Source of the DNA: Rozella allomycis CSF55
Lineage: Eukaryota
Reading direction: 5' to 3'
DNA length: 58,124 bases
NCBI GenBank assembly: GCA_000442015.1
Contig: KE561324.1
Location: forward strand, 62,001-120,124
The translations under genes were made by a program, and so were the position numbers. A model generated the notes under the pieces. It was not told the origin of the DNA, made no database searches, and saw nothing but the letters and a program-made list of their open reading frames with translations. Shown one piece after another: positions 526 to 56,722 of this stretch (positions within the stretch are counted from its first letter, which is position 1; each line of letters starts with the position of its first letter).

Positions 526-1265
526 ATGATTCTTAATGTCGTCAGTTGGAAGAATTTTTTTAAGTCATCAATTTTATACATATATTATACAATAGCTCTT
601 TCGTTCACAGGTTACATCATCTTGACATTCTTTTCCAAGCCTTGGACATCATGGAAAACAGTCTCTAACTATTCCTTGACATCTCATGGAGCCTCCTTCA
701 TGGCTTTGCACTGGATTGGTGGGTGCGTTCTTAATATATGCATGGTGCTACAGATTCATCCTTACATAAGGACGAAATCGTTAAAGATTCATCGCAATAT
801 TGGAAAAGTTTGTTGTTTTTTTGGTTTAATCACCAGTATTTTCGGCTGTCTATATATTTTCACTGTTGGAACTGTGGGTGGTATCGAAATGGACATTGCA
901 TTTGCGTTGTACGGTTTCCTCTTCTTCTTTTTCACCGTCAAAACATATATGGCTGCCAGAAAACACAAAAGATTTGTGCATGAAATCTGGGCAGTGAGAA
1001 TGTTCGCGATGAGTGTTGGTAGTCCTCTGTATAGGTAAAATTACCCAATTTTAGTAATATCAGACTTTACATCTCACCGTTGTTTATAAAAGCTGTATCA
1101 TCGAAATTAACAAGCGTAGATAAAATTAGATATCTTAATGTTGCTGGATGGCTCATGTTTGTACCTAATTTGATCATTGCCGAGATCTATATCTATCGAC
1201 AGCTGCATAAACGTGATGACCCTAAACCTTCTTCGACATCTGATCAAGCAATCTTGGACGAATAA
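526..1265 (+). CDS. Multi-pass membrane protein, DUF2306-like
   Basis: ORFs 526-1038 and 1080-1265 are joined in frame by a GT-AG intron at 1035-1063 (29 nt). His motifs LHWIGG, IHRNIGK and HEIW..RMFA. Confidence 0.6.
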
Positions 1266-1319
1266 GCTTATAATCTATAAATATAAATCATAAAATATTT
1301 TATTGTTAAAAGTTATCTA

Positions 1320-1760
1320 TCAAACTAAATTTAATGGATTTTCGTGAAAGTGACCAACAGGCTCAACTTTGTATCGTTTCATGTCAATTAATATCAGCAT
1401 TGATATTTTCATTCGTAGTCTACTGAGGAAACTGAAGTTCAGTCTCTGCATTTTAATGGTATCACCAGTTTCTATAATGTCCAGACCGAATTCACGCCCC
1501 AGTGCGAGAACGTCACATACAAAATTGTTTTCCGCATTCAAAAAGTATTCCATTGGTATTTCCCAGGAAGTTATTTGGCTATTAGTTGCAACTTTCCAGA
1601 GGCCCTTGACAAAAGGATAAAAATAAAGTCTCTGGGAGTTTCTCCAAAAAAATAATTCAAGGTATATTTTTTTCTTGCAATTTTCTATTTCGTTTATGAG
1701 AAATTCTGTCCTTTCTTGAGCGACTTGTTGATGAAAGGCTTGGCGGTCATTATTGGCCAT
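1320..1760 (-). CDS. Hypothetical protein, 146 aa
   Basis: Uninterrupted ATG-initiated ORF filling an intergenic space; no family recognised. Confidence 0.5.
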   Translation of the reverse strand: MANNDRQAFHQQVAQERTEFLINEIENCKKKIYLELFFWRNSQRLYFYPFVKGLWKVATNSQITSWEIPMEYFLNAENNFVCDVLALGREFGLDIIETGDTIKMQRLNFSFLSRLRMKISMLILIDMKRYKVEPVGHFHENPLNLV

Positions 1761-4005
1761 GCTAGGGTATTCATTATTTTACCGAGGGATTAAAACAAGT
1801 ATTAAGAATGTTCTTAATAGATTTGAGAATCAGTTTCTATGCCACGTGACCAACATTAGGACCCTTGCCTCAGTTGGAAAAATTATGACGACTAAAGAGG
1901 AACTTTCTAGTGAGATAACAGCTGTCGGCGACAGAATCCGAAATATGAAGCTTGAAAAGGCGAGCAAAGAAGCTCTTCAACCTCATATCGATCAGCTTGT
2001 CACTTTGAAGAAAAAGCTTGACGAAATTATTGTAGCGGAATCAAAGAAAGAGTTTGATAGAACCAAACTTGAAACGGTGTTGAGAAGACGATTTTTTTAT
2101 GCTCCAGCATTTGACATTTATGGTGGTGTGTCTGGTTTGTATGATTATGGTCCTCCTGGATGTGCACTTCAAGCCAACATTCTGCAATTATGGCGTTCCC
2201 ATTTTATTTTGGAAGAGCAAATGCTTGAAGTAGATACAACTATTTTGACGCCATATGATGTGTTGCACACTAGTGGACATGTAGATAGGTTTACTGATTT
2301 AATGGTTAAAGACAAGGGCAATGGTAATTTGTATAGAGCTGATCATTTGCTTGAAAACTGGCTATCAGCTCAAATTAAGGATGTCAAGACTGATGCTAAA
2401 CTTAAAGAAGAATATTCTTATGTTATGACCCAAGTAAGTTTTCATTAAATACATTAAAAGGTGGACAATTATGATGCCAAAGAATTGGGTGATATTTTGA
2501 GAAAATACAACGTAAAGGCGCCTGAAAGTGGCAACGATATTTCTGAGCCTGAGCCATTCAATTTAATGTTCAAGACACAAATTGGACCAGCTGAACATGA
2601 TTCCAAGGGACGTGGGTAAGTATGATAAATGGAATTTATGTAGATTCATGAGACCAGAAACTGCGCAAGGTCAATTTACCAACTTTAAGAAATTGTATGA
2701 ATACAATAATGAAAGAATGCCATTTGCTTCGGCACAGATTGGAAAGAGTTTTAGAAATGAGATTTCTCCACGTGCTGGATTGTTAAGGGTCAGAGAATTT
2801 ACGATGGCTGAAATTGAGCATTATGTGCATCCAAATAAAAAGGATCATCCACGTTTCAGGGAAGTAGAAAATGTGATAATGTCATTTTTACCTGCATCTG
2901 AACAAGAAAAGGGAGTGTCTAGTACGATTGACATGACGATTGGAGAAGCCGTCCGAAGTGGCATGGTCAACAATGAGACCCTTGGATATTTTCTTGCTCG
3001 CATTAGTTTGTTTTTAATAAAGATCGGAATAAAGAAAGAAAGATTGAGATTTAGACAGCATATGAGTAATGAGATGGCGCATTATGCGAGTGATTGTTGG
3101 GATGCTGAAATCCAGTCTTCTTATGGATGGATTGAATGTGTTGGATGTGCTGATAGATCTGCTTATGATTTATCAAATCACACAAAGAGAACTGGCGAAA
3201 GATTAGTTGCGCGTGAAAAGCTTGATACGCCAATCCAAAAGAATGTGATTAAGCCACAATTCAATAAGAAGGAAATTGGTGTTAAATTTAAAAAAGATGC
3301 AAAGGTGATCGTTGATGAAATTGAAAACATGAATGAATGTGAGTTGAAAGAATTGAAGAAGAGTTTGGAAACAAATCAACGTGCCAAGGTAGCTGGATTT
3401 GAAGTCAGCAGTGATATGGTTTCCATTGTAGAAACCGTTGAAACATGTTATGGTAAAAGGCAATGATGGATGAAATGTAGTCGATGAATACATTCCTTCT
3501 GTTATTGAACCATCATTTGGTATTGGAAGAATTATGTATTCTTTATTGGAACATTCTTACTATGTTCGTGAAAATGATGAAAATCGATGCGTAAACTCGC
3601 TTGTTTATTTTAGTGTAGGTTTTGTCTTTCCCACCTGTTGTTGCCCCAGTCAAATGTCTTGTTGTGCCTTTGAGTGGCCATCCGTCATTTCCTCCATTTA
3701 TTTATGAATTGTGCCAACTTTTGAGATCCAAAGATATTTCTTTTCAAAAAGATGATTCTAGCAGCTCTGTTGGAAAACGTTACGCTAGAAATGATGAGAT
3801 TGGTATTCCATTTGGCATCACAGTTGACTTTCAAACCGTCAAGGATAAAACTGTCACTTTAAGAGAAAGAGATTCAATGTCTCAAGTTCGCATTCATATG
3901 GATCAAGTAGCAAACATCGTTGCTTCACTCGCAAACGCTACTCTCTCTTGGAACAAAGTCACTGAAACATTTCCTGCTTTTGTTGAACAAGAAATTGATA
4001 ATTAA
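1759..4005 (+). CDS. GRS1: Glycyl-tRNA synthetase (alpha2 type) with WHEP-like domain; cytosolic start probably ATG 1885, upstream in-frame ATG 1759
   Basis: Motifs [31 protein letters not shown] and [10 protein letters not shown]. Introns at 2434-2460, 2616-2643, 3453-3480 and 3591-3618. Confidence 0.95.
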
Positions 4006-5393: not shown

Positions 5394-6552
5394 CTATGTC
5401 AACGATGCCAGAGATCTCTTAAAAGATGATCTCTTTGTATTCAGCCATTTATACACATAAAAATCAGATAATTCTACGCCTTTTCTATCACGGATAATGT
5501 CATTAAACGCTTCGGGATTTTGGCAATACCCATGGTGTCCCTTGCCAGGAATGACAAAAAAATTAGCGTCTATCTTGTGTTGATGCATCGATTCTCGGAG
5601 TTCATTAGAGACATAATTCAAGTCAATCCAATCACGCTCTCCGCAAATTATGTCGACTTTCATAGGAAGCTGGTGACTGTGATTCAGCAGTTTAGTAACA
5701 GGTGAATGCCATCTTATCCCCCTTGTCATTTCAATGAGATTCATAAAAGCACTACCCCCTGAATTTGGCAAACAGTTTGATGATGCTAGGTAATCAGCAA
5801 ACAAGTCTTCTCTAAAAGGATAGTATTTCCCTATGTTTGGCTGCATCAATCTAATAAGGCTTTTATAAAAGAAAAAAGGCGTATTAAATTGATTTTGATT
5901 CATTATTCTAATGATGAGTTTTAGAGCCATGTCACTCATTAATGATGCTTCCTGTGGGTAGGTTAAATTCCTGAAACCAATAATCTAAAATAAATGAAAT
6001 TACCAACTGGTGAAGCTAATATTAATCTGTTTATATGTGATGATCCATTTTGTAATGCATATTGAGATGCGAAATAACTTCCTAAACTATGCCCAACTAG
6101 TGAAAAGTCTTGTAAACATAGACTTGCTCTCCATTTCTCAAAAACAGAATTGTAGAAATTTATAATTCGACCATGATCCATCCCGCTAAAATCCAGTCTA
6201 CTGCTGAGACCCCACCCAATCATGTCAATACAGTACACATCAGAAAAACCTATTCAACAAATATATTATCTTTACTTTGAGCATGCAATATTGTGTTTGT
6301 CCAATTTGCTATTCCTGATCCATATCCATGAAGCATTACTAAAGGAGGTGCCCGCGGATTATTTGATTTTACCAACAAAGTATTCACATATATATCTTGA
6401 TCATCAATATTAATCTTAATCCAAAATTTCTGTCGACGGGGAAAGTAACTTAAGATTTGGTTCTCGATCATCAATGCTTTCATAAATATATTGTATTTCA
6501 CATTTGGGCCTAAATCATGGCACCTGACATAATTAAGTCGTGATAAAGTCAT
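5394..6552 (-). CDS. Alpha/beta hydrolase, ABHD4/5 (ICT1/CLD1)-like lipase/acyltransferase; start uncertain
   Basis: Motifs LVMLHGYGSG, IDMIGWGLSSR, GHSLG, GERDWI and GHH. One 26-nt GT-AG intron plus an inferred GT-TG intron at 5978-6003. Confidence 0.8.
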
Positions 6553-6635: not shown

Positions 6636-6885
6636 TTATTTTTTTCCTGATTTTTTGATACCTCCACTTAGTAAAGGACCTCCTTTTGATGCCTTTTCTT
6701 TCAATTGTTTTAAGGCGGCTTCTTGTTCTTTCTTCTTCTTCATAAACTCTAAATCGTCCTACATTTAAGAATAAACTAGATTTTACTTCATCAAGGTCTC
6801 TTTGATCTTTTTTTGGTTTCTTTAAAGGCTTTAGCTTTCCACCTTATCTTTTCTTAGAAAAAATGTTACCTTGACGAGAAGACAT
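6636..6885 (-). CDS. TMA7: Translation machinery-associated protein 7
   Basis: After removing two introns (27 and 28 nt): MSSRQGGKLKPLKKPKK...KGGPLLSGGIKKSGKK*. Not in the ORF track. Confidence 0.92.
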
Positions 6886-7567: not shown

Positions 7568-8067
7568 ATGCGCAATTTAATTCTCCTCTCACGTAAATCA
7601 ATCATTGATGCACAATTAGATTTCCGTTTTACAGTTATTAATAAGAATTCTTTTCGAAATATAAAAACATTGGGTAAAATATAACCACTTCTTATAAATT
7701 AGCGAATGAGAGTAATTTAATATTTAAAATAATATATGCTTCGTCTCGTACACATGGTTCGTATCACTGGTTGGCTGAAAGAGGGTTAAGCTTGGCCCTA
7801 TTAATTGGTTTACCTGTAGGTTTGTATACGCCCAACGTGTACACAGACTTATTGCTGGCATTTACTATTCCCGTCCATCTTCATATGGGTTTAGGGCAAG
7901 TGATTATTGATTATCTACCATCAAGAAAAATGCCGTTGATAAATAAAGCAGCACGAGGCACCTTATATGGCTCAACTGCGCTTCTATTATATGTTCTTTT
8001 AAGTTGGAATGAATATGATATTGGGGTTGGTGAAGGTATCAAGCGTATTTGGAGTGGTAAGAAATAA
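7568..8067 (+). CDS. SDH4: Succinate dehydrogenase membrane anchor (CybS/SDH4/TIM18 family)
   Basis: Motifs HGSYHWLAER and HLHMGLGQVIIDYLP. Intron 7674-7702, probable in-frame intron 7593-7619, possible GT-TG intron 7712-7738. Confidence 0.85.
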
Positions 8068-8105: not shown

Positions 8106-10941
8106 TCAAGCAACGTGACTTTTTCCAATGGCTCCTTTTTCGGATCTATGTACCGTCTTATCTTTTCCTGGGTGAATTTTGTTTTTTACTCCTAGGCGTT
8201 TAGCAGCCTTTACTCCAACAATAAAGCCAATAAACAAGCATATTCCAATAAAGAAGTAGCATACCCAAAGAAGGTTCATTGTTTGACTAGACAAAGAAAT
8301 CAAAAGTAATTACGCCCAGTTTACAGACAGATAGTTAAGAATTTCAACAACCACATTTGCTATACCCTTGCATTCTCCTGCATGATTTAAAATAGATATC
8401 ATTTGGTCATATAAGTTAGCAACTGAATTCTTAACGCTTAATATAACAGCATTTTTGGCAGCTACTAATGTCACATTAAGCGCAGGAGACACTTATTGTG
8501 TATATATTGCAAATGTTACCTGCGCTTACAGTTGAATTAATAGAATTCAATATCGGCAAGGTATTATTAATGAAGTTAACCAGATCCGAGAGTCTTGTAG
8601 TTATGTTTGAAACATTAGAATCAACATTGTTCAAAGTATGATTGAGTAAAACCAAGTCCGTTTGTATTGTTCCAATGTTGTTTTTCGCTGCAGGTAAAAC
8701 AATAGATGCAGAATAGTTCACCCGAATCAAGCCATAAGCTGCGTAGAAAGTAACATTAAGAGCATTATTATTGGCATCACTGGAACTTCCGGTAATTTGA
8801 GAAGCCTAACAAATCAACTGCAATATTTTACGTCAAATGTACTTCCTCCATTAATATATGTGTTAACAATATAAGTTTCCGTGAATGGAACAAAGGAGCC
8901 ATTAACACTTTGAGCAAGAGTATTAAAGCTTGTGAGATTAGATGTTATTTGAGTGGGGTCCCAACCAGATATCAAAGTTGATAATGTCAAGTTATTGGAA
9001 ACACCTGTCAATGTATCTATAGTACTCTGAATGTCGATCGGCAAAGAAACGTTGACTGAGAAGGAGCTAATCGCACTTAAATTGACATCTTATCTCAAAT
9101 AAAACATTAATTTACTAGAAATTGAGTTTAATTCTGAGAGATCTGGTAAAGTGAAACTTACAGCATTATCCACGTTAATATTTGCAAATTGGCTGTCCAA
9201 GTTTAAAAATTCAATGAATGTTTCTCCTTTTGTCTTATTTAATTGATCGATAAAAAAGTTCTGTAGACCCAAATATGCAACAAGAGTGGTTCCATTGGAT
9301 ATTACAGACGCGTTAAAGATAGATTTGCCTGACAAACAAGAGTTTAACAAAGTAGCTGGACTTATGTTCATTTGACTTGCCGGTGTCGCATTGAATAGAT
9401 TCAAATTCGGAGCTGGTCCAAGACTATATTCCTTGGTTAAAATTGATGTTCTGTTTATAGCGATTGCGTTAAACACAAAAGCCATCAAGAAGAATAAGAT
9501 AAAACATAGCCAAATGCAAAAAGAAGAGATAATCGTAATAGGTTTCATAATTTCAGCAATAACTCCTTTTTGAAACAAAACAGCTAAGGTGCCAAACGCA
9601 AAACCTAAAAACACTAAGCCTACTAAGGCAATAAATCCGATGTCCCTTTCTTTGATTGTTTTGTATCTTACCTATATGTATCATAAGGCAGAACCAAATT
9701 ATTAATCATATCCAGAGCTAACGTTTTGTAGGTTGCTATTTGAGATGTTACGGGACTAGTGGCAGTGCGCAACTGATTTCCCAATCCACTAGTCATTGAA
9801 GACAGGCCTCCACCACTACTTATAGTGTCTGTGAGATTTCTAATCGTACTGTTGAGCATAGATGGCAAACTGCTTATTGTTCCCTCATATGTATTATTCA
9901 GGGTAGTTGTTAAATTGTTAATATTTGGCAAATTGTTGATAGGAGAAGATATCGCTGAAAAGTCAACAATTGCCGAAACGTTCGGTAAAGTAAAAGCAGA
10001 TATAGTTGGTACCCCAGATACGTTATAAGTTTGGGTATCTATTGTTATCGCACGTAGATTATCAAGTAGAGTAGTGATATCCCCAGTTATATTGGTTATG
10101 TTATTTAAGGTATTAGATAAATTTTGAATTGACATTTCAATAGTATTGATTTGACTTGTAATGTTTGAGACTCTGATGTTCATATTTCCTAATACGCCGA
10201 ATATGTTGTTGACGGTGGGCCCAAGATTCTGTCGAATAATTACGCCGAAATCAGTTGCCAAAACGGCATCTGCAAGACCCGAAATTCCAGTGTTTATAAC
10301 GCTTCCTAATTGGTCAGCTGATGTGACTAAACCGTCTGTAACTGAATTAATTTGATTTGTAGTGTCTTGAATTATCAATGAAGCGTCGCTCAAATTTGTA
10401 GTGAATTGCTTGCTGCCAATCAAAATGAAAGAGCCAAAGAAACTAATAATCTTATTAATAAAATATTACAAGACAACTCCAGACAGAATCAAAAGTAATA
10501 TACTCACTGATGCAACTTGATATGTTGTGTAACCACCCTTCCTTGGTTTCCTTCCTCCACAAGAGTTGCAACAACAACGGCAACAGCAAAACAATAGGCC
10601 AATTATGGGCATCATAATCATCATAATTACACCAAAAGCAAACAAAATTCCAAAACCCTAAACTACATCGATATGTGCTGCGTTACCAAGAAGTTTTTGG
10701 TGGCAAACGATATTGGGTCAGCAGTAATGATGGACATTATAGTTGTAATATCTTCAATACCCATTCCCGGTGCCAACAAAGACTGAATTTGCTGCCCGAA
10801 ATTGCTTAAAAAGGAACCCGCCGTGACCACAACATTAGAGTCGATCTTGGATTGTAAAAGTTGAGGTAGATTTGCGGAAACTGCGCATGAGAACAATATG
10901 ACTATTGTGAATGCAAATTTCCCATAGTCCTCGACGATCAT
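8106..10941 (-). CDS. Prominin-like 5-TM glycoprotein
   Basis: Seven introns of 26-29 nt join a signal peptide, TM1 followed by MPIIGLLFCCCRCCCNSCGG, two large N-glycosylatable loops, and a final N..W...VK.AK TM segment. Confidence 0.7.
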
Positions 10942-11810: not shown

Positions 11811-12294
11811 ATGGGTCGTATGCACAGCAAAGGGTAATAGAGAAAAAGTCATTTTAGTTAGAAAAGGTATCTCTGATTCAGCTTTACCATATCGTCGTAC
11901 TCCACCATCATGGTTGAAGACTACTCCTGAAGAAGTCTGTGAACTTATCTGCAAATACGCCAAGAAAGGTTTAACTCCATCTCAAATCGGTGTTCTCTTG
12001 CGTGATCAACATGGAATCGCTCAAACTAGATTCGTTACCGGAAACAAAGTCCTTCGTATCTTGAAAGCCAACGGTCTCGCACCAGAAATTCCTGAAGATC
12101 TTTACCAACTTATCAAGAAAGCTGTTGCTGTCCGTAAGCATTTGGAACGTTTTCGCAAGGACAAAGATTCTAAATTTCGTCTCATTTTGATCGAATCTAG
12201 AATCCACAGACTTGCTCGTTACTACAAGACCACTGGTCAATTGGCTCCAAACTTTAAGTACGAGTCTGCCACTGCGTCCACTCTTGTAGCTTAA
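11811..12294 (+). CDS. RPS13: 40S ribosomal protein uS15 (S13)
   Basis: [18 protein letters not shown]...[16 protein letters not shown], with one 28-nt intron. Confidence 0.97.
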
Positions 12295-14182: not shown

Positions 14183-14754
14183 TCTGCCAAGTTACAAAAC
14201 AATTCAAAATCATTTGCTTCAAAGTCGCAAGCTTCTAAATCTTTTCCAAGGCTTGGCTCATCAAAGCCATTCATGGAAGACGAAGAGGTTGTACCAGAAC
14301 ATGAGCCTGTTCATGTAACAGAGAAAGAAATTAAACTGGCATTCCAATGGCTTTCTAAAGATGGAAAAAGAATAACCAAAGATGATATAAAATCCAAATT
14401 GACAGAGATAGTGCCACAATTAAGTCTCAGAGATTACAAGTTGTTTGTTGGCAAAGAAAATGAGACAATGAGTTTAAAAGAAATTAACAGTCTGTTACTT
14501 AACCGAGATTTATATGAATTTAAACCAATTGAGGAAGCATTTCATGTAATTAGATTAGCAAAGTTATTAGATAGTTCTTTCCAAAGGATACTGATGGTAG
14601 TATAGATAATAGCTTTATAAAGAGACTATGTGTGTTGATGAATGACGATGGTTATATTAGAAAAAACGATTACAAAAATTTGATGGAGAAATTTGATACA
14701 GACAAGGATGGCAAGATTAGTATGAAAGATTTTGAACAAATCTTAAAAGAATAA
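14177..14754 (+). CDS. EF-hand calcium-binding protein
   Basis: One 29-nt intron; C-terminal FDTDKDGKISMKDF is a canonical EF-hand. Confidence 0.75.
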
Positions 14755-17700: not shown

Positions 17701-17893
17701 CTTTTAAAATTATTACTGGACTAAGAGTTTTCTTACAAACTTGCGTTCTCAACGGCTCATAGTCTGCAAATCTAATTTCTACAAAAGCGTCGGTTAATTC
17801 CGATGTCCTGTCCATTACAGGTAAATCCCTCGCTCCTATTACTCTAACCTCGTGTATTCACTTATTTTTTGTTACTTTAAGAATACATGGCAT
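14796..17893 (-). CDS. C2CD5: C2 domain-containing protein 5 homolog
   Basis: Spliced N-terminus MPCILKVRVIGARDLPVMDRTSELTDAFVEIRF; RDTWWTELRDEIKSHARALGC; 7 introns of 26-29 nt. Confidence 0.88.
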
Positions 17894-24645: not shown

Positions 24646-26282
<1,637 letters not shown>

Positions 26283-28625: not shown

Positions 28626-29384
<759 letters not shown>

Positions 29385-34838: not shown

Positions 34839-35163
34839 ATGAATGAATCAAACGCCTACAACATTGCTGAAAATAATGAATTAGATGATACTTATTCAAA
34901 TGAAGAAAGTGATGTTACCTCAAGTGTTCAAATAAATCGATACAAATTAGTGAAAGAAGAAAATCATGAGCAACCTGTAACAATTTCAATCAATTACGTA
35001 ATATTAGACAAAGCAAGCAGACTCCGAGATAGATATATCATTTTTAACCAGTGTTTTACAAAATGGAGTGGAATCCGAAACTGTGGTAATCGTATTGATA
35101 AACGAAAGAAAGTGGACGTTTGATTACCTCATGCAATCCTTGAAACAAAACCTAGTAAAATAA
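34839..35163 (+). CDS. IFT43: Intraflagellar transport protein 43-like (short)
   Basis: The spliced C-terminus DSEIDISFLTSVLQNGVESETVWTFDYLMQSL resembles the IFT43 EIDL..LT.VL...W..D.L motif; 2-3 introns. Confidence 0.6.
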
Positions 35164-36883: not shown

Positions 36884-36991
36884 ATAATTTCATTTTGCCA
36901 TTCCTCCAATTTTGGACTGGCCACTAACTTCAGCCACTGTGTTCTTTTTAAATTAATTAATCACGCGCCACTACACGTGACTAAATATACA

Positions 36992-38724: not shown

Positions 38725-39408
38725 ATGAACTTTAGATTCTTTTCTACCGAATTGTTCAACAAAGTTCTCAAAAACACACCGAAACCAACCTCCCATAAAT
38801 ATTACTTGGAGCTCCTACAAGTTCCATCTCATTTTACCAAGAGCGATCTTTTCCATATTTACAAGCTTCCTCTACGATATCTGCCACATTTTCAATGTAA
38901 AATGAAGTTTTAGATATATTAAAGTCTCTAATACCCGATATAACACGTCCAATAACCGTTCCTGGATAATGGTTTTCGACGATCTCGAAAAGATGCGCTA
39001 TCTCAAGGAAAAGATGAATGAAGCTTTCAACAAACGCCCTCTAGAAGACCGCATAAAGATACGAGAAGGAGAAAGTGTACAAGCGGATGACTACATTGTA
39101 ATTGAAAAGGTTGGTTCACCTTTGATGCTTCGAAATCTACCGCTTGATACTAGTATAGGAGATTTACAAGAAATTACAGCGGATTATTTAAAGGTTAGTG
39201 TGGAAGAAGCGGATCCATACATTATCATAGAGTCAAAAAAGTAATTGTTGGTTGAATTGGAGACAGGGATAATGAGGAATCAAGCGAAAAGTGTGTAAAT
39301 GCTATAGTTCGATTTGCCAATGAAAAGGAAGCGGCCAAGGCAATGTTGGATTTACATAAACAGGAATACAAAGGTAGACTTATATTTTCTAGATATTTTG
39401 ACCAATAA
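38725..39408 (+). CDS. RRM-containing protein, possibly mitochondrial
   Basis: LMLRNLP...NAIVRFANEKEAAKAM..LHKQEYKGR; 2 introns; presequence-like N-terminus. Confidence 0.55.
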
Positions 39409-40491: not shown

Positions 40492-43400
40492 TTAAATGTC
40501 AAAGTCGTCGTCTTCGGAATCAGAGACAGCAATACCTTGCTTCTTTTTCAATTTCTTTGCCTTTTCTTTAGCCTTTAATTCCTTGCGAGATAATTTCTTA
40601 GTTGACTTGACTTTGGTGACGTTTCCGAAAGCATCGATAGTTTCTTCTTGTTCCTTTTGTTCAATCTTTTCACCCTTCCCAGCATCAGTAACACCGTCGA
40701 TTGAGAGAACACCCTTGTCAACGTTCCAAGTGGTTGGGCAGAGAGAAGAAGTGAATTCAGAGTTGTGAGAGATCATAATGACACCACCTTGAAATTCGTT
40801 GATAGCATGAGCAAGAGCACCTAAAGAGTCACGATCCAAATAGTTGGTAGGTTCATCTAAAACAACAATGTGAGGATTCATCCACATAGCAGCACCAATG
40901 ACAACTTTAACCTTTTGACCACCAGAGAGACCACGAATACGAGAGTGAGTAGCGAATTCAGGATCAAGACCAAAATCAATTAAATGTTTTTCAATGTTCT
41001 TTTGAGTTAAAGGTTTAGCATAGAGACCTTGTCTAGCAGCTTCAGCATCATCAAAAGCTTGAACTAATTTTTGGAATCCCCAAGTGTCTAATTTTTCACG
41101 AGTAATCCAAGCGTTCTCTTCCATTGGCATGTTGACCCATTTGACTTCGTATTCATAAGAATTCTTCAACTTTCTTCTACCAAGCAAAGCATCAATGACA
41201 CGCTTAGTTCCTTCATACTTGACTTCCTTTTTCAATTCAGCTTCTTCTTCAGGAGTCATCTTACGAGTAGCCTTTGATAATAATTCTTTATCTTCACCAT
41301 ATTGAAAACGCCATTGGATGTATTCGTTTGGAGTCATGTCTAAATGTTGTTCTAAATGATGGAAAGCGTGTTGAGCAACATAGGCAAAACGCAAGTTGGG
41401 GTGTTTCCATACTTCACCTTCAGTTGGAATGGTTTCACCAGTCAAGAGCTTAATGATGGTAGACTTACCAGCACCGTTAGGTCCAATAACAGCAATACGA
41501 GAAGCAAGAGAACATTGAACAGTGATGTTAGAAATAGTATTCTTTTCAGCATTTGGATATTTGTAAGCACACTTCATCATCTTTAAAATAGCCTTGTCTC
41601 TAGATTTAACTCCATCAAGAAAACCAGGTTCAGGGAACTTAAATTTGATTTGAGAAGCAGAAAGTTCAAAATATGCTTTAGCTTCAGGCTTAACAGAAAC
41701 GAAATGGGTCAAGTTTCCATGGTAGATCTTCAACTTGCGAGATTCATAGTGAATGATATCAGTACAGACAGTGTTCAAGAATTTAGATTCGTGAGAGACA
41801 ATCATGCAAGTAACATCATCTAAACCATTCAAGTAGTTTTCTAACCAAGCAACATTCTTAACATCCAAGTGATTGGTTGGTTCATCAAGCAAAAGAATAT
41901 CAGCCTTCAAAAGCATAGCTCTTGCCAATTGAGTCTTCATCTTCCAACCTCCAGATAAACTGCCAACTCCCTTGTGGCAAATTTCATGTGTAAAGTTCAT
42001 TGAAAGCAAAAATTCTTCAACTTCTTTTGCTGTTGATCCCTTCATAAATTCATCTTCCAAAATGTATTCAACAACAGTCATATCAGAATCAGAAGCTTGA
42101 AGTTCGTGAGCAACGTAAACAGATCTCAATTCATCCTTTGATGGAAACCCTTCCAATTGTCCATTAGCAATAGCTCTCATCAATGTAGATTTACCACAAC
42201 CGTTATGTCCCAATAAACCATATCTACGGCCTCTCTTCATTCTCAATTTTGTATTATTCAACAAAATCATACCACCATAAGCCAATGAAAACTCACAGTT
42301 ACACAAATCAACTCCACCAATATCTTCTTCTACTTTCATATTCTCCATCTTTCTTGAAATATCTAAATCAACACTCTTCTTCAAAAACTCTTTAGTAACT
42401 TTTTCGTTCTCTTCAGTCAACAACTTGACAAATGGTCCAATAGACTTGACCCACTCAGCTTCTTCAAAGTTCTTCAATCCAATAAATGTGGAAGCCAAAT
42501 TACAAACAAAGTTGATGCACAAATCTTCAACATTTCCATTCTTGGCTCCTTTCAATCCACTCTTAATAAATCCTGTCAATGATTCAATTTCCTTCTCAAT
42601 AGCTGCTTCATCTCTAACAAACTCATTTCCTTCAGCTCCAACTTCAATCAAAACATTCTTTGCTTTGGTTGCTACCTCTCTCAACTCTGGATTAGATGCA
42701 TTCTCTATAATAGCATTCAACCCTGGCATCAACTTTGGCAAAAAGTGTTGCGCATCTTCTGGATTAGTAACCAACTTGCACATGTTTCCAATAATAATAG
42801 ATGTTTGACGCAATACAACAGTAGCTCTTTCCTTCAAACCTCTTTCCAACAATGGAACCATCACAGCTAAGGTTGGTTGATCAACTGGTCTAATAAAAGT
42901 AGTAGAAGACAACTTGTAGATAGTTTCTGGAACTTCTTCTGGCTTGGCAATGCAGCTGATGATGTCGTTCATAAATTGCTCAATATCTCCATTCTCAACA
43001 GTCTTGAAAATCTCCTTAATAGCAGCAAAGGCAGCAGTTTGCACTTGAGTCTTGGTAGACCACATGTTTTCAGTCAAGTGTGTAATGATCTCTGGCAAAT
43101 GTTGTGCAACTTCCTTTGGTCCAATAGACACAAATGATCCAAGAATATTCAAAGCTTTTTCCTTTCCTTGCCATTTCTTGCTGTTAGACATGGCTTCAAA
43201 CAAGATTGGCAACATGAATTGAACGTCTACTCCCTCAACATGCTTCAACACTGCTTCACATGCCTTCTTGGCAGCTTCTTGAACAACAGATTGCTTATCA
43301 GAATATGCATCCAAAACAGCTCCCAACATTGGCAAAACGTATGGGCAGCTAACACGCCCCTTCTTATTAGCAACAGCCTCAACAAATGCACAGGCTCCTT

Positions 43401-43620
43401 GTCTAACGGTCACAGATGTCTTGTCAACAGCAGCCTCAGAAATAGCCGAAACAACAGAAACTTCCTTTTGAAGGTTAGCTAGACCAATAGCATCGGTGAC
43501 ACTAACCATCTCCGAAATAACTTGCTCAATATTCTCCGCGGTTTTTAAACTAACTAGCAATTCACTGAAACGCTTGGATTGCGCTGAAACGGTGGCAGAA
43601 GGTTCAGTCGTTTTCGACAT
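40492..43620 (-). CDS. YEF3: Translation elongation factor 3
   Basis: HEAT region, two ABC cassettes (GHNGCGKST, GPNGAGKST), chromodomain insertion and K-rich tail; intronless. Confidence 0.95.
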   Translation of the reverse strand: MSKTTEPSATVSAQSKRFSELLVSLKTAENIEQVISEMVSVTDAIGLANLQKEVSVVSAISEAAVDKTSVTVRQGACAFVEAVANKKGRVSCPYVLPMLGAVLDAYSDKQSVVQEAAKKACEAVLKHVEGVDVQFMLPILFEAMSNSKKWQGKEKALNILGSFVSIGPKEVAQHLPEIITHLTENMWSTKTQVQTAAFAAIKEIFKTVENGDIEQFMNDIISCIAKPEEVPETIYKLSSTTFIRPVDQPTLAVMVPLLERGLKERATVVLRQTSIIIGNMCKLVTNPEDAQHFLPKLMPGLNAIIENASNPELREVATKAKNVLIEVGAEGNEFVRDEAAIEKEIESLTGFIKSGLKGAKNGNVEDLCINFVCNLASTFIGLKNFEEAEWVKSIGPFVKLLTEENEKVTKEFLKKSVDLDISRKMENMKVEEDIGGVDLCNCEFSLAYGGMILLNNTKLRMKRGRRYGLLGHNGCGKSTLMRAIANGQLEGFPSKDELRSVYVAHELQASDSDMTVVEYILEDEFMKGSTAKEVEEFLLSMNFTHEICHKGVGSLSGGWKMKTQLARAMLLKADILLLDEPTNHLDVKNVAWLENYLNGLDDVTCMIVSHESKFLNTVCTDIIHYESRKLKIYHGNLTHFVSVKPEAKAYFELSASQIKFKFPEPGFLDGVKSRDKAILKMMKCAYKYPNAEKNTISNITVQCSLASRIAVIGPNGAGKSTIIKLLTGETIPTEGEVWKHPNLRFAYVAQHAFHHLEQHLDMTPNEYIQWRFQYGEDKELLSKATRKMTPEEEAELKKEVKYEGTKRVIDALLGRRKLKNSYEYEVKWVNMPMEENAWITREKLDTWGFQKLVQAFDDAEAARQGLYAKPLTQKNIEKHLIDFGLDPEFATHSRIRGLSGGQKVKVVIGAAMWMNPHIVVLDEPTNYLDRDSLGALAHAINEFQGGVIMISHNSEFTSSLCPTTWNVDKGVLSIDGVTDAGKGEKIEQKEQEETIDAFGNVTKVKSTKKLSRKELKAKEKAKKLKKKQGIAVSDSEDDDFDI

Positions 43621-45384: not shown

Positions 45385-47205
45385 ATGGCAGATGTCTCGG
45401 GACTGTATAACCTTGGAAATTCATGTTACATGAATGCAGCCTTACAGTGCTTGCTCAACTGGTATTTAATTTTCTATTTTTCGCAATATAGCCAACCAAT
45501 AAAAGCTTATTTTTCCCTCCTTAATTTTCAATCAAGATTATACCCAGTGATAGTGAAAGAGTTTGAGAAACTTGTGAAACTTTATGGAAAAGAGTAAACC
45601 CGTAAATAATATTGGATCAGAGAAATTATCAATCCAAATAAATTCGTGAATCGAGTGCGAAATGAAAATGCCTTGTTCTCTGACTATTCGCAACAAGATA
45701 CTATGGAATTTTTAAGATATATTTTGGATTCTCTGCATGAAGGATTAGCAGAAAATGACAGGTCAATTATTTCAGATGTTTTCAGAGGCAAATTGATGAG
45801 CATTCTAACATGCACTAGTTGTCTTCATGTAAGACCTTGTAATTGCAAAGAAAGGTATCTAAAAAGATTGATCCATTTTTTGATCTTGCTCTACCAGTGC
45901 GTAAAGATACAAATCATTCAAATTTTGTTCAAAATTTCATTAACGAACTGACGGAGTAATTATGAATATAAATCTACAAAGGTTGGTATCTTTCAAAGTA
46001 GAAATGCTTCAAGATTGCCTTTCCCGGTTGATGTCTAAAGAAATTTTGCGCGATGAAAATGCAGTTTATTGTGAAACTTGCAAAAAGAAACAGACATTTA
46101 AAAAGGAATTAAAATTATTAGAGCTACCAGAAGTAAAAAAGTGAAGTGTTTATAACAGGTCCTTATCATTCAATTAAAAAGGTTCAGCTTTGATTCACTT
46201 TTCGGACATAAAATTACGAATTATGTGTCCTCACCTTTGACAGATTTTGATGTTTCCTCTATATGCCATAAGAGTGTTGGGTTAAATACAAGATACTCTT
46301 TGATTTCTTCGATAAGGCACCATGGATCGTATCACGTATGGCGATGGTCGAATTATAATGTAGGGAGGTCATTATACGGCAAAAAGCTTATGCAGCAATG
46401 GCAAATGGTTCAAATTCGATGATTCACATTTCAGAGAAATTTCTTCAGAAGTCGTAGAAAATGAGGAATCATATATTCTATTTTACCAAAGGCAAATGCC
46501 TGGAAAAACCGAAGAAAGAAAGATAATCGATTCTTTCAAATTAGTAGCTCATCATAATTATCTGTAATTAGGAAAGTATTGGCAAGGTTAGCTTGATCAG
46601 CAAAATATGGATGAATCGATTTTTGACATTTGGAAATCCAGGTCCTGTATCAAATAATGATATTTTATGTCCTCACAAGAGTAATAAATTAAATGCATTA
46701 TTTAAAAGAACTTAATCCGTCTTTGCAAGAAGGTCTTGTTGATAGAATACCCAGAAATGTATTTGAATATTTTGTTCGAACTTACGGAAGCGATGATCCT
46801 AATTCGTACGAAGAGTTGGAGAAATGCGAAATTTGCCGCGATATTGAAATAAAATTGGATGAAAAGAGGAAGAAGATGACTGATGAGATTAAGAATGCCA
46901 AAGCGGAAGAATCGGACACATATTTTCATGTCAACATCAATTGGTTAAAAAAATACGAGAAATTTCTTTTGGGAGATAAAGAGCCTGGAACGATAAGCAA
47001 TGCATCTATTGTCGACAATGGACGCATCAGAAAAAATCTCACCAGAGGAATACACTATCGATCTCTTACAAAATCTGTTTGGGATTTACTGTATAATGAA
47101 TATGGAGCCGATTATTTTATTACAGGAACGGATCTCAGTATTTATAACTCAAAATTGGATAACTTAAAACCATCTAAGGATTGTACAATCGAAATAAAAG
47201 AATAG
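45385..47205 (+). CDS. Ubiquitin-specific protease (USP20/33-like, C-terminal DUSP domains)
   Basis: [38 protein letters not shown] and [13 protein letters not shown]; about 8 introns. Confidence 0.88.
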
Positions 47206-48775: not shown

Positions 48776-48925
48776 TGAAAATAACCAGGGTCTGGTTAAT
48801 AAGATTGAAAAGTAGGTTTATTAAAGTGACTGGAAATAGGCGCATTAGACCAAGGAATGTATTATATCAAGAACCATCACGTGATTAAACCATTTAAGAA
48901 TTTTCACAAAGCCACCCTTGCAAAA

Positions 48926-51900
48926 ATGTCTAGTGCACCGAAAAGTGTAAGTGGTAGTAATTTTGGTTAGAGTAGACGGCGCGACGTGATCGTTTGGTAG
49001 CTATTGAGCGGGAGATACAAGAGTATTGGGACAAGGAGAAGATATTTGAGACTGAGGCACCAGGCAAGGATGAGCCTTTTGTAGAAAAGTTTATGGGGAC
49101 GTTTCCGTTTCCGTATATGAATGGGAGACTGCATTTGGGACATTCATTTTCGCTATCTAAACTGGAGTTTGCAACAGGATATGAGCGTTTGAGGGGGAAG
49201 AGGGCGTTGTTGCCGTTTGGGTTTCATTGTACTGGGATGCCGATCAAGGCGTGTGCGGACAAGTTGAAGAGAGAGATTGAAGAGTATGGAAACCCACCGG
49301 TGTTTCCTAAAGAGGTTGTGGAAGAGGAAGAGGAAGTGAATGAGAATGTAGACCCAACGAAGATTAAGAAGAAGCATGGGAAAGCGTTGGCCAAGAGCAG
49401 TGGAGCAAAGTATCAATGGGATATAATGTTGTCGCTTGGGATACCAGAGAGTGAGATTCCCAAGTTTGCTGAGAGTGAGTATTGGTTACAGTATTTTCCA
49501 CCGATGGCAATTGAAGATTTGAAGAGATTTGGATTGAAAGCTGATTGGCGTAGATCATTTATAACGACTGATGTGAATCCATACTTTGATAGTTTTGTTA
49601 GATGGCAGTTTAATAAGTTGAAGGAGGCTGGGAAGATTAAGTTTGGCAAGAGATATACGATCTACTCTGAAAAGGATGGACAGCCATGTATGGACCATGA
49701 TAGACAGAGTGGAGAGGGAGTTGGACCGCAGGAGTATACGATAATATTGATTAAAGTTGTTGGGGGTGGAAATGAAAAGATGAAAAAGTTGATGCAAGGA
49801 AACAAAGTGTATTTGGCCGCAGCAACGTTGAGACCTGAGACGATGTATGGACAAACTAATTGTTGGATTGGGCCTGATATTGAATATGGAGCATACAGAG
49901 CAGCAGATGGGAGTGTTTATGTGTGTACTGAAAGATCAGCCAAGAACATGTCATTTCAAGGGTTGAGTAGAGAAGTTGGCAAAGTAGAATTAATTGAGAC
50001 TTTTAATGGAAAAGAATTGTTGGGATTAGAATTGGAAGCACCACTTGCAGAGCATAAGATTATTTATTCATTGCCGATGATGAGTGTTAGTGCCAAGAAG
50101 GGAACGGGGGTGGTTACATGTGTTCCAAGTGATTCACCAGACGATTATGCAGCGTTGAGAGATTTGAAGCAGAAAGAGGCGTTGAGAGAAAAGTTTGGAA
50201 TTAAAGCTGAATGGGTGATTCCATTTGAGCCAATCCCAATAATAGAAACACCAACTTATGGGAATGTGTGTGCAAAGGTGATAGTTGAAGAATTGAAGAT
50301 TACGAGTCAAAATGATAGACCAAAGTTGGATTTAGCTAAAGAATTGGCATACAAGGAAGGGTTTTATAAAGGAAAGATTATTATTGGAGAATACAAGGGA
50401 GAGATGGTTTCAGAAGTGAAAGTGAAGATTAGACAAGAGTTGATTAATAAAGGAACAGCATTGATTTATTATGAGCCAGAAAAGGTAGTCATGTCGAGAT
50501 CTGGAGATGAATGTGTTGTAGCGCTAGTTGATCAATGGTATGTTGATTATGGCGAAGAAGAATGGAGAAAACAAACAGAAGAGTAAAAAGGATGATTTAA
50601 TTTAAGGTAGATGTTTGAGGGGTATGAATTGTTATCATGAAGAAACAAGAAATAAGTTTATTTCAACGTTGGGATGGTTGAATCAATGGGCCTGTTCTAG
50701 ATCTTATGGGTTGGGTTCTAGACTTCCATGGGATGAGCAATATTTGATAGAATCACTTTCAGATTCCACTATTTACATGGCATTTTATACAATATCGCAT
50801 TATCTTCAATCTAATGTGAATGGAAGTGAAATGGGAATTGGAAAGATAAAGCCAGAGCAAATGACTGATAAAGTTTGGGATTATATTTTCTGTAATAAAG
50901 AATGTCCAGAAACTGACATTAATAAAGAAGTGTTGGAAAAGATGAAGAGAGAGTTTGAGTATTTTTATCCATTGGATTTGAGAGTTTCAGGCAAGGATTT
51001 AGTTCCAAATCATTTAACATTTTTTCTTTATAACCATACAGCGATATTTGAAGACAAGTATTGGCCAAAGGCAGTTAGAGCGAATGGACATTTGAAATTG
51101 AATGGAGAGAAAATGTCAAAATCAACTGGAAACTTTTTAACGTTGAAAGATGCGATTGATAAATTTTCAGCTGATGCTTGTCGTTTAGCTTTGGCTGTTG
51201 GTGATCAAGTGGAAGATGCCAACTTTGAAGAAAGCAACGCAAACGCTGCCATCCTTCGTTTGTACACTTTTATGGAATTCTCTCAAGAAGTTTATGAAAA
51301 ACCAGAATTGTTTAGAAGTGAATCTGAAGAATTTAATTTTCATGATCGTGTTTTTGAAAATGAAATAAACAAATCAATAAAATTAACAAACGAAGCGTTT
51401 GAACAAATGACGTTTGCTGAAGCTATGAAACATGGGCTATATGAACTAGCAAACGCTAAAGATCGTTACAAGGATTACGTTGGTGGGAAAATGCATTATA
51501 AATTAGCTAAAAGATTTGTTCTTGTTCAATGTCTTTTATTATCTCCAATCTCTTCTCACATTACTGAATACATTTACAGAAATGTTATGGGTTATTCTTC
51601 AAGTATTCTAAACGCTTCTTTTCCTGAAATTTCTCAAATTGATGATTCTATTTTAATCGCCAATGAATTTCTTCAATCTACAATCACCAAAATTAGACAA
51701 TCTTTAGAAAAAGAATTAAAGAAAACAAAGAAATCTATCCCTGTAATAAATTCTCTAACTATTCTTGTTGCCAAAGATTTTCCAATCTGGCAAAAATCAA
51801 TCTTTGATATTCTTTCTTCCTTTTATGACAAGAATTCAAATTTATTCACTGCTGAAATGGACGTTATCGTTAAAACTATCATGAAATCTGAAAATGCTAA

Positions 51901-52267: not shown

Positions 52268-52699
52268 TCAGTATATTCTTCCTCCTCCAAGTGGCGGTAT
52301 TATAATTCCAGGCGGCAAAAGAGTATCAGGCGACAACGCTCCAGCAGCCGCTACACTAAACGTAGGCGCTCTAGGATATCTAGGCGGAGGTGGCAATATC
52401 GGCTCTACATCCATCTCCCTCAAATCTCTTACGTGCATTTTCTCTAGCAGGCGGAAACGGATACCCTCTATCGCCTGGCCTATTCACTCGGTCAATCATA
52501 AACTGCAGTTTCGCTAAATCCAACGCTATTTTATCTTCTCTTATACTCCCTTACATGCATAATACGCTCTGATTTGTTCAGCATGCTTCCACCCCTTGCT
52601 GTGGTCGCGGCGAACGCGAGGTGCGTCGTGTGTTAGGTATACGTCGCAATAGTCTTGTCAGGATTTTGTTTGTCTATTACCGCAATAATATTTGGGCAT
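52268..52699 (-). CDS. YHC1: U1 snRNP protein C
   Basis: Spliced [30 protein letters not shown] with a Pro-rich tail; 3 introns (27, 29, 28 nt). Not in the ORF track. Confidence 0.9.
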
Positions 52700-54620: not shown

Positions 54621-55625
54621 TTACTCTTCATCATCAAGTTCTAATTCTTGACCAGCCAACTTCGAATAATGGGATGCTTTAGAATAAAAGTTCTTTCTAT
54701 CAGATTCATTTGGTTGCATGCAACCCAAATTGGCACAGATTTCAGCGAGCAAAAGTAGGTCATCTTCATCCAAGTCTTCATCACAGACATATTTAAAGCA
54801 ATCAAACGCTTCATGTAGACAATAAATCGTGATTACCTTTCTCAAAATTATCAATAATTAATTTTGTCTCCTTATCTTCATTTTCTCCAGCTTCCGCGTA
54901 GTCTTGCAGGTATGTTCCGATCATCAAGTGCGCGTTCGCCAGCCCAAATCTATCTTTTTCACTTGATTCTTCCAAATATTCAATTGCTAAATTTAAACAT
55001 GACATATAAGAATCATTTGGTAAATCTAAATCATTTTCACAAGTCTTAATCAAGAAACTTGATGCCCTAGACTTGTCACTCAACTTGGACCATATTTCCT
55101 TGATTTTGGATAAATCTATTTGATTCATCAACACCTTATTATAAATTATTCAAGAAGATACCATTTTTCTTAATATTGCAGCACCAAGGTAAAATGTTGA
55201 ATCATCGTCGATTTCTTTTACACTAATCAATTTCTCAACAGCCAAATCCAAAAAGCCTACATGCTCTTCTTTAATAGACGGTTCAGTATTTGCGTAGTAT
55301 TCATATACTGATGGCACGTCAAATGTCACTAAGCAGAAAAGGGCCTGTCCGTATGTCTTATCCAACATTTCCGTGTCAAGTCGATTACATTCATGTATCA
55401 CTGCCCTGACGTAATTTAAAGCATTCTCAATGTCTTGCTCATCTATCACCTTTCAATCTTGAAATTACCGTAATACGCCAATGCCGTTTCCAATAATGCC
55501 TCGACAGTTTCGATTTCATTTTCTTCTTCTTCAACTGGTTCAGGCTTTAATTTTTTATTTTCAGATTCCTGATCCTTTTTCTTTTTTAAACCCATAGGCT
55601 TCTTTCTTTTTGCATCTTCAACCAT
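54621..55625 (-). CDS. ETT1: ETT1/NRO1-like protein
   Basis: N-terminal KKPMGL and RAVIHECNRL motifs; 3 introns. Confidence 0.65.
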
Positions 55626-55666
55626 ATAAAAAATGTAATCTGCTAAGCCACCGTATTAAGAGTGAT

Positions 55667-56722
55667 ATGATTCCTTCAGATAATGGCGAAGACAAAGAAA
55701 GGGAAAAGATTGACAAATACAAAACAAAGGCCATGAAGTCATGGAATGATTTATCGCTAGCTGTTAAAGAAAAGGGAAATGTTTGGAAGCAACGAGCTTT
55801 GGACAAGAAGAATGAACTGATACGTTCTCAATTCTGGAAGCCATCACAGTCTGAAAATGTTGATACTAAAGAAGTTATAGGGAATGATCAAATTCGAAAG
55901 GGTATAGATATTTTTTGTAGACAATTAGCGTCATTTTGTCCTATAGGAATATCCTTGGCAGAAGCTCTGATCAACTATGGAGAGGATAAAAATTTTCCAG
56001 GTGTTCCATTGTTAATAACGCGATGCGTATCCCATATTGAGACTAAAGGGATCAATGAAACCGGAATTGTAAGTGTGCCAATTTTAATATAATAGTATAG
56101 GATATCCGGATCTACTTCCAAAATTCATCTATTAAAACAATCTCTATGCCGTAACAATGTAGTCGGTTTTGAAATAGCTCAATTTGAATATGATATTAGT
56201 ACAGTTGATCCTCATGACGTTGCCGGATTTTTAAAGTTATTTCTACGAGAATTAAGAGATCCTCTGTTGTCAAGAGAAGAGCAATGCTTAATGGCAGATA
56301 TTATTCCTGTTCGAAAAGAAGGTGTTCTAACAACTGCAGGACAAAATTCATTCGACAAGTTGAATGAACTTTTCTCTCAGCTTAACATGATTCACGTTAA
56401 TACGTTAATTTTCCTGATGCTTCATTTGAGCAATATAGCAAAAAACGATCAGGTTAATAAGATGACAGTGGGGAACCTTATCATCATTTTTTCCCCTTGT
56501 TTGCAAATAGCACCTGCGATTTTATCGTTTTTGATATCCAATGCAGATAAGCTAAGTGTTAGGAAGGATAAAGTTGAGTATGGGATTTTTGATGCGATAA
56601 AGGAAAACGATGCGTCTAATATGATAGAGGCTCGATGGGCTTCAGACAATATCCTTGAAATAAACAAAGAAGTACCAAAATTGAATGACGAAGATCCATT
56701 TTCGGATTCTCATGCAATGTGA
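55667..56722 (+). CDS. RhoGAP-domain protein
   Basis: GINETGI/YRISGS, VAGFLKLFLRELRDPL and NKMTVGNLIIIFSP; about three 27-nt introns. Confidence 0.88.

Follow-up and report, generated by a model that had tools for sequence, protein, structure and literature searches.

Introns of 26-31 nt in Rozella allomycis with ends that are probably set by position from the 5' splice site

How branch points and 3' splice sites are chosen where sequence motifs are weak is a long-standing question, for which organisms with tiny introns are natural experiments. The question is raised by a stretch of nuclear DNA of Rozella allomycis CSF55 (58,124 bases, G+C 33-37%; hereafter the window), which carries tightly packed eukaryotic genes (Pfam matches to EF3, GlyRS, LeuRS, Sua5, Uso1/p115, a sugar transporter and others) and a large number of very short introns. 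A preliminary description of this DNA had proposed that the spliceosome fixes the 3' end of these introns by a ruler from the 5' splice site and needs little more than a terminal G. Here, the short-intron class is found to be real, and its members are read as minimal spliceosomal introns of 26-31 nt, the ends of which are probably set by position from the 5' splice site. An adenine at nucleotide +23, counted from the first intron base, is the candidate branch nucleotide, and in a few introns TG appears to take the place of AG.

The introns were reconstructed with a Viterbi gene finder combining codon log-odds from long open reading frames, GT donors and explicit intron lengths. In the first pass (GT..AG, flat length prior of 15-150 nt), 92 introns were obtained, 38 of them at 26-29 nt. 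In the second pass, splice-site weight matrices were added while the length prior was kept flat. Now 57 of 86 GT..AG introns measured 26-31 nt. A single one was shorter (17 nt), the intervals 18-25 and 32-36 nt were empty, and the other 28 calls, scattered over 37-149 nt, were skipped low-scoring exon stretches. In the third pass, the length prior was switched on and any 3' dinucleotide was allowed at a penalty, which gave 107 introns. Curation removed antisense and false genes as well as three artefacts (5' extensions of the UBC6 and TMA7 genes), added three introns of a U1C gene and the intron 1035-1063, and exchanged 14597-14622 for 14546-14574. Some statistics were computed on an earlier set of 97 introns and are marked as such.

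The curated set comprises 104 introns, 103 of 26-31 nt and one of 78 nt, with 39 on the plus and 65 on the minus strand of about 40 genes between 1035 and 56095, i.e., about 2.3 introns per kb of coding sequence in the window. The short introns peak at 27-28 nt (26 nt, 23 introns; 27 nt, 29; 28 nt, 28; 29 nt, 13; 30 nt, 5; 31 nt, 5). Thus, the narrow short class of the preliminary description was recovered, while its estimate of about 120 introns and its lower bound of 24 nt were too generous, since none was found at 24-25 nt. Short-intron lengths were evenly distributed modulo 3 (34/33/36), and no depletion of 3n introns was seen in this set. In-frame stops occurred in 32 of the 33 3n introns, a count that is biased by the detection method and was not used as evidence. 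All three stop codons were found within removed segments.

Homology supported the reconstruction. Once the segments were removed, the products were continuous with solved or aligned homologs to the residue at more than 15 junctions, and every homology-validated intron measured 26-31 nt. Exon 2 of the ATP synthase beta gene lies between two introns with AAG acceptors (26008-26035, 28 nt, and 25222-25247, 26 nt; minus strand), and its junctions abut exactly, between residues 57 and 58 of 8h9e_E and between residues 301 and 302 of 8f2k_D. When the ten-intron model of delta-COP was compared with 12 homologs, nine of the ten junctions were gap-free and the tenth lay in a variable linker. The Uso1 model agreed with the public protein at five junctions, four of which are in strongly conserved, indel-free blocks of 27 homologs.

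An adenine stood at +23 in 78 of the 100 AG-ending introns and in all three TG-ending ones, against a background of 36% (p=2e-17). It was found there in every length class (20/23 introns of 26 nt, 24/29 of 27 nt, 20/28 of 28 nt, 11/13 of 29 nt, 3/5 of 30 nt and 3/5 of 31 nt), and no column near the 3' end was more than about half A (97-intron set). Exonic GTA..AG decoys had A at +23 in 36 of 93 cases (39%), and the position was absent from every model used in finding introns. Its surroundings were uninformative, with no position from +5 to +22 above 0.06 bits (97-intron set). The earlier statement that no branch point is visible therefore holds for a motif, but it overlooked this adenine, which is the obvious branch candidate. 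Eleven introns had A at +24 and not at +23, and all of them measured at least 27 nt; this fits, though weakly, with a smallest permitted distance of three bases between the A and the final G. The combination of GTAA, A at +23 and AG was present in 56 real introns as compared to seven exonic decoys. In 45,063 nt of exon, GTA followed by AG at 26-31 occurred 93 times, as against 158 times in triplet-shuffled sequence (lowest shuffle 137), and this depletion suggests selection against cryptic tiny introns.

The remaining splice signals were few. GTA opened all 103 short introns and GTAA 79 of them; since the finder was restricted to GT donors, the GT is true by construction, while bases 3 and 4 were left free. 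At the 3' end, AG closed 100 of the 103 short introns and also the 78-nt intron, and TG closed three. The base before AG (position -3) was relaxed, as previously claimed, being T in 57, A in 27, C in 14 and G in 2 of 100 introns. Because it varied with intron length (A20 T20 C8 G2 up to 27 nt; T37 A7 C6 G0 from 28 nt), AAG and GAG acceptors are largely a trait of the shortest introns. The two GAG acceptors are:

17849-17875, minus strand: 27-nt intron after the six-codon first exon of a C2-domain (C2CD5-like) gene, from the gene model
20841-20867, minus strand: 27-nt intron of Uso1, from the gene model and identical to the public annotation

In the C2CD5-like gene, the match to the C2 profile begins at the exon start and the next in-frame Met lies within the C2 domain. 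The flanks of the Uso1 intron are too variable for a homology test.

Intron interiors were composed of A36 T39 C10 G15. In agreement with the preliminary description, no pyrimidine tract was detected: the pyrimidine fraction at -15 to -4 was 0.47, with 14 of 103 introns at or below 0.25, and the longest pyrimidine run was 3.9 in introns versus 3.75 in shuffles. A CTRAY-type branch motif was likewise absent from the 97-intron set, in which CTAA occurred in three introns compared with 8.2 in shuffles, CTAAC in none, and [CT]T[AG]A[CT] in 24 compared with 23.4. By motif discovery, only TGA/TTGA was enriched (25 versus 12.4), which may partly reflect the handling of AG in the shuffles; it had no fixed position, except for a TGA ending at +23 in ten introns. 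Thus, of the features of major-class (U2-type) introns, the 5' GT with a GTAAGT/GTRAGT-like consensus and the 3' AG are present and the branch motif (in fungi CTRAY or TACTAAC-like) and polypyrimidine tract are absent. Introns of the minor class (U12-type) are marked by a strongly conserved 5' site, RTATCCTT, and by the branch site TCCTTAAC. This class was rejected for the window, where bases +4 to +8 are A/T-rich and without consensus.

Purine-rich introns that had been singled out before were confirmed, and the examples quoted, 22899-22926 (plus strand), the U1C intron 52405-52432 (minus strand), 1035-1063 (plus strand) and the GAG acceptor at 17849-17875, were exact. Three purine-rich introns, 52654-52680, 52526-52554 and 52405-52432 (27, 29 and 28 nt), all with A at +23, lie in one gene:

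52268-52699, minus strand: U1C (zf-U1 type) gene, obtained by three-frame translation and manual joining, which we take to be U1C from its N-terminal zinc-finger sequence

In 99 of the 100 AG introns, the acceptor was the earliest AG to end at +26 or further on, and in none did it lie beyond +31. The exception was:

48947-48975, plus strand: intron of the LeuRS gene, which uses an AG at +29 in spite of one ending at +26

With the AG at +26 as acceptor, the exon of this gene would open with an in-frame TAG. The claim that closer AGs are skipped was borne out: an internal AG was present in 68 of 100 introns, and 49 of the 56 skipped AGs ending at +12 or later would give a frameshift or a stop, seven being viable in frame (97-intron set). 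In the same set, 19 of the 20 downstream AGs ending at or before +34 were out of frame or gave stops. The example that had been chosen for skipping, 1035-1063, proves nothing by itself, its AG at +20 being in frame and open. That little more than a terminal G is needed is an overstatement: apart from the prevalence of AG, a TG at +27 is ignored in 18433-18462 and the AG at +30 used. G was rare between +26 and the 3' end (3 seen, 13.3 expected, P=4e-4), but without position -3 the difference shrank (3 versus 5.7, P=0.16), so that the deficit largely reflects the usual scarcity of G at -3. A rule of 'first G at or beyond +26' fits 100 of 103 introns and is inseparable from 'first AG plus no G at -3'.

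The three introns that end in TG are:

33635-33660, minus strand: GT..TG intron of delta-COP, 26 nt, A at +23, no internal AG, residue-exact homology
21088-21116, minus strand: GT..TG intron of Uso1/p115, 29 nt, A at +23, residue-exact homology
5978-6003, minus strand: probable GT..TG intron of an alpha/beta-hydrolase gene, 26 nt, GTAA, A at +23, likelihood comparison

For delta-COP, the upstream exon ends with ...YQFK at residue 62 of 4o8q_A (328 of 5a1u_H), and the downstream exon begins with THPNVDKK at residue 63 (329 of 5a1u_H). These exons can be joined only by the GT..TG cut, or by a 23-nt cut that ends in AA and adds a Met. THPNVD(K) is present in 12 of 12 delta-COP homologs and is identical to the mammalian protein. 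For Uso1, no AG occurs upstream of the one ending at +43, which does not keep the frame. The 16 residues that follow the TG junction match a block that all 27 homologs conserve; here the GT..TG cut of 29 nt is an exact fit, whereas a 26-nt cut leaves one residue more than in all 27. By PDB and Pfam alone, the comparison was indecisive (17.1 versus 15.6 bits), and it was settled by the 27 homologs. Thus, the TG ends of delta-COP and Uso1 are supported, as far as protein conservation can be read from the sequence.

Searches with both proteins returned named Rozella allomycis CSF55 proteins at 100% identity, each with one public copy on a 120,124-base contig of the 2013 assembly and a second from a single-cell assembly. 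The public delta-COP (EPZ31028.1 / RKP21384.1, 483 aa; window 32997-34815, minus strand) has a 47-nt intron at this place, by which seven conserved residues are lost, and two exons at its N-terminus that the homologs support (introns 34785-34812 and 34714-34744) are missing. The public Uso1 (EPZ31021.1 / RKP22202.1, 712 aa; window 19999-22350, minus strand) has a 77-nt GT-AG intron and a deletion of 17 residues. Judged against their homologs, both public protein models appear to be wrong.

The hydrolase gene is probably a third case by the gene-finding model. The rival is an adjacent 26-nt GTT..CAG segment at 5952-5977, which scored -39.6 and thus under the minimum of real introns (-30.6), while the GTAA..TG segment scored above the average real intron (-22.1). 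The TG model had a lead of 11.3 nats, from which a penalty of about 4 for TG is still to be subtracted. In searches of PDB and NCBIfam, no homology support for the candidate was obtained. The preliminary count of three to four TG acceptors is therefore reduced to two with homology support and one that is probable. Two other candidates were rejected: at 36868-36897 (plus strand) the gene ends, with a stop at 36881, and a separate gene with a signal-peptide-like N-terminus starts at 36992, and near 8324 the sequence is accounted for by a canonical intron of 27 nt (8287-8313).

The only intron outside the 26-31 nt class is 28218-28295, the sole intron of the gene for ribosomal protein S25 (28215-28580, plus strand), which lies immediately 3' of the ATG and measures 78 nt. 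An AG ending at +60 is skipped, and a TTTAAC-like stretch lies 7 nt before the AG that is used. Read from the sequence, there is no GT 26-31 nt upstream of the acceptor and hence no short solution. Since this intron has no short solution and skips the AG at +60, a distal, classical branch site must still be usable. The ruler proposed earlier is thus supported in part. In the short class, A usually stands at +23 whatever the length, the first-AG rule holds, no intron exceeds 31 nt, and frame and homology require a cut after TG at +26 or +29 where no AG lies at 26-31; the S25 intron indicates a second, classical mode.

These observations can be accommodated by a mechanism in which the A at +23 would be the branch nucleotide, 23 nt from the first G, and would be placed by the minimal loop size of the spliceosome or its catalytic core rather than by pairing of U2 with a motif. 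Exon ligation would follow at the first suitable dinucleotide 3-8 nt past this A, with a strong preference for AG. Where no AG lies in the 26-31 interval, a TG there would be the only productive 3' splice site (3/103 introns). A classical mode with a distal branch site and a longer intron would have been kept for at least one ribosomal-protein intron. The full version of this proposal, in which both chemical steps are measured from the 5' splice site, with branching at nucleotide +23 irrespective of its context and ligation at the first AG, or else TG, 3-8 nt on, is tentative and rated slightly below an even chance.

Several points weigh against the mechanism. At +23, 22 of the 100 AG introns have another base, and in nine of the 103 short ones A is missing from all of positions 22-24. 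In 26-nt introns, one base would remain between the A at +23 and the AG; to our knowledge, this is shorter than any documented spacing between branch and 3' splice site, and the A may have another role. An AG follows the three TG sites at 7, 14 and 21 nt, and by analogy with tandem sites in human, TG use may depend on this downstream AG, with the AG form also being made. The TG bases could also be assembly errors or alleles, although it seems unlikely that two such errors arose independently at just these places within 58 kb. The introns are model-based and come from a single 58-kb window, with GT donors imposed by the method; one wrong call of the finder was corrected and others may remain. 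A metatranscriptome with the same species label, compared with the window, gave only chance matches of 18-30 nt and no joints. The corrected call, 14597-14622 (plus strand), has GTA, A at +23 and AAG at +26 and is an exonic decoy, because a Pfam EF-hand pair continues through it (window 14575-14751, profile 14-66 of 67); the real intron is 14546-14574 (29 nt).

The introns might instead be ordinary minimal ones, with no measuring device at work: in a parasite with a compact genome, deletion bias would have reduced them to the smallest size that a normal spliceosome can sterically accept. U2/SF1 would then still read a degenerate branch site, which lies near +23 since nothing shorter fits, the acceptor would be found by classical first-AG scanning, and the TG cases would be assembly errors, alleles or inefficient sites. 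A first-AG rule past a minimal distance is what classical scanning predicts, nearly all introns (100 of 103) end in AG, the behaviour of the 78-nt intron is classical and the avoidance of G beyond +26 vanishes without position -3; moreover, narrow classes of tiny introns are known in several lineages, as described in PMC10245619. However, a branch site found by its sequence would not be expected to yield an A so sharply anchored to the 5' end in six length classes, the bases around it carry at most 0.06 bits and CTAA is depleted instead of enriched. Random errors are also unlikely to produce two TG sites at the exact positions required (+26 and +29) and backed by conserved protein. This explanation deserves serious consideration but is rather unlikely.

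It is improbable that the TG introns are in fact cut at the next AG (giving an intron of 47 or 50 nt for delta-COP and one of 77 nt for Uso1), with the residues in between absent from the proteins. Such longer GT-AG forms are in frame, both public annotations agree with them (delta-COP 483 aa, Uso1 712 aa), and human AG-to-TG mutants are described as activating neighbouring AGs and not the TG (PMC2374985). On the other hand, the codons skipped would be THPNVD(K) in delta-COP and the block shared by all Uso1 homologs, sequence that an intron would not keep, and 31 nt is the upper limit for all other short-class introns of the window. Because it misses two N-terminal delta-COP exons that homologs support, the public annotation is not authoritative here. 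An artefactual origin of the short introns, whether from frameshifts in sequencing, from a variant genetic code or from an over-fitted gene finder, is very hard to credit. A length prior was used in the last pass, at least one call was wrong and the window contains two N bases; yet the length peak was already present under the flat prior, all three stop codons lie inside removed segments, homologs are matched to the residue across more than 15 junctions, and the A at +23 is outside every intron-finding model.

With 103 of 104 introns at 26-31 nt, the Rozella introns belong to the known kind of length-constrained, ultra-short introns. Paramecium has tiny introns of about 20-34 nt. Introns of 16-17 nt are reported for mikrocytids and of 18-21 nt for the chlorarachniophyte nucleomorph (PMC10245619). 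Like those of mikrocytids, nucleomorphs and Paramecium, whose genomes are described there as compact or unusual, the Rozella introns fall within a window of a few bases (PMC10245619); unlike the highly conserved intron sequences of mikrocytids, their interiors carry at most 0.06 bits, and the length class differs (PMC10245619). In the heterotrich ciliate Stentor coeruleus, introns are 15-16 nt long, with a strictly conserved 5' GTA and AG ends, and without a strong branch consensus the branch A is the tenth base in 90.9% of 15-nt introns (PMC9505925). Compared with this account, Rozella shares the narrow length class, the GTA and a near-fixed A without a motif (81/103 introns; its role in branching is putative). 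Rozella differs in its fungal lineage, in its longer introns of 26-31 nt with variable length and in some TG ends; its A is spaced constantly from the 5' end instead of the 3' end, and the two anchors are thereby separated.

Rozella is placed as sister to Microsporidia (PMC6349667, PMC8476143), for which few short introns and rare long ones are described (PMC3629993, PMC6349667). For Encephalitozoon cuniculi, only 37 introns of 22-76 nt are reported, every one of them GT-AG, and their motifs at the 5' end and the branch site are called 'relatively strict' (PMC3629993). Its short class and rare long class (about 76 nt, in ribosomal-protein and similar genes) are paralleled by the short class and the 78-nt S25 intron of the window. 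In contrast to E. cuniculi, Rozella has 104 introns in 58 kb, no branch motif and three TG ends, and an assignment to the reduced microsporidian intron set (few introns, strict motifs, all GT-AG) was rejected. In human, TG is the non-AG dinucleotide of U2-type introns and lies no further than 28 nt from an AG (Szafranski et al. 2007, PMC2374985), and in the same account it is 'never the sole 3' splice site', AG-to-TG mutants not being spliced at the TG. Each Rozella TG likewise has an AG within 28 nt, but in contrast to the human tandems only the TG cut yields the conserved protein in delta-COP and Uso1. Median intron lengths of fungi are given as 29-197 bp (PMC8042348), and the minimum of 29 bp may belong to Rozella allomycis itself. 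In the literature found on Rozella introns, which does not include the 2013 genome paper, there was no description of the A at +23, the first-AG rule or TG ends. What appears to be new in Rozella, on sequence evidence, is the candidate branch A anchored to the 5' end and the apparent use of TG as sole acceptor.

An EF3 tree places the window sequence basally among fungi, close to an aphelid and with a long branch, and the nearest other EF3 sequences are 52-59% identical. Scanning metagenomes with delta-COP yielded two loci of 37% identity without introns. Genes in the window are often spaced by less than 100 bases. The genes for EF3 (40492-43620, minus strand, 1042 aa, with a chromodomain insert) and Sua5 (18889-19959, plus strand, 356 aa) are among the longest and intronless, with neighbours that have 4-10 introns. 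The 5' end of a UBC6-like gene on the minus strand abuts or overlaps a membrane-protein gene on the plus strand (31027-31650; region 30917-31650), where the finder had chained into the antisense frame. A mini-gene at 6636-6880 (minus strand), presumably TMA7-like from its translation, has the introns 6843-6869 and 6759-6786. Isolated N bases at 14073 and 22629 lie outside the gene models and may be assembly ambiguity calls. Rfam and tRNA scans of the window gave no match, and no snRNA gene was found within it; of the splicing machinery, only the U1C gene was seen there.

The coordinates of the 104 introns are as follows, with the strand after each:

Introns: 1035-1063+, 2434-2460+, 2616-2643+, 3453-3480+, 3591-3618+, 5978-6003-, 6250-6275-, 6759-6786-, 6843-6869-, 7674-7702+
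Introns: 8287-8313-, 8492-8519-, 8806-8831-, 9089-9115-, 9646-9671-, 10443-10469-, 10658-10686-, 11834-11861+, 12557-12584-, 12938-12963-
Introns: 13184-13213-, 13276-13302-, 13415-13440-, 14546-14574+, 16058-16085-, 16437-16464-, 17047-17075-, 17323-17349-, 17562-17587-, 17691-17716-
Introns: 17849-17875-, 18433-18462+, 20841-20867-, 21088-21116-, 21369-21396-, 21562-21587-, 21776-21803-, 22000-22026-, 22802-22827+, 22899-22926+
Introns: 23044-23072+, 23208-23234+, 23459-23486+, 23668-23694+, 24493-24520+, 24812-24840-, 25222-25247-, 26008-26035-, 26714-26741-, 27059-27085-
Introns: 27722-27747-, 27946-27972-, 28218-28295+, 28737-28767+, 29026-29056+, 29174-29204+, 30372-30398-, 30505-30531-, 30594-30620-, 30794-30821-
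Introns: 31847-31874+, 31963-31990+, 32204-32232+, 32490-32518+, 33087-33113-, 33322-33351-, 33461-33486-, 33635-33660-, 33827-33853-, 34034-34062-
Introns: 34401-34427-, 34497-34522-, 34714-34744-, 34785-34812-, 34977-35007+, 35297-35322-, 35423-35449-, 35576-35602-, 35807-35833-, 37366-37392+
Introns: 37652-37678+, 39241-39266+, 44261-44286-, 44355-44380-, 44978-45005-, 45022-45051-, 45594-45620+, 45829-45854+, 45956-45981+, 46133-46158+
Introns: 46336-46363+, 46544-46571+, 46681-46708+, 48812-48839+, 48947-48975+, 50583-50610+, 52405-52432-, 52526-52554-, 52654-52680-, 53813-53842-
Introns: 54809-54836-, 55135-55161-, 55443-55468-, 56069-56095+

Since the length of Rozella introns varies by a few bases, anchoring at the 5' and at the 3' end can be distinguished, and the candidate branch A follows the 5' end. 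If the proposed mechanism is true, Rozella would be a clean case of position-defined branching and would provide a natural 'molecular ruler' mode of U2-type splicing in the lineage next to Microsporidia. TG would then be the sole, constitutive 3' splice site of essential genes; no earlier case in which TG alone serves as productive 3' splice site is known to us. Conserved residues are missing from at least two public gene models, the annotation having insisted on AG, and public Rozella models would be systematically wrong wherever the 26-31 interval has no AG. With GTA, the A at +23 and the first-AG rule (from +26 onwards) as criteria, re-annotation of the whole genome would be simple. As Rozella is sister to Microsporidia, the result also bears on the origin of the microsporidian state, with its few, strict and poorly spliced short introns.

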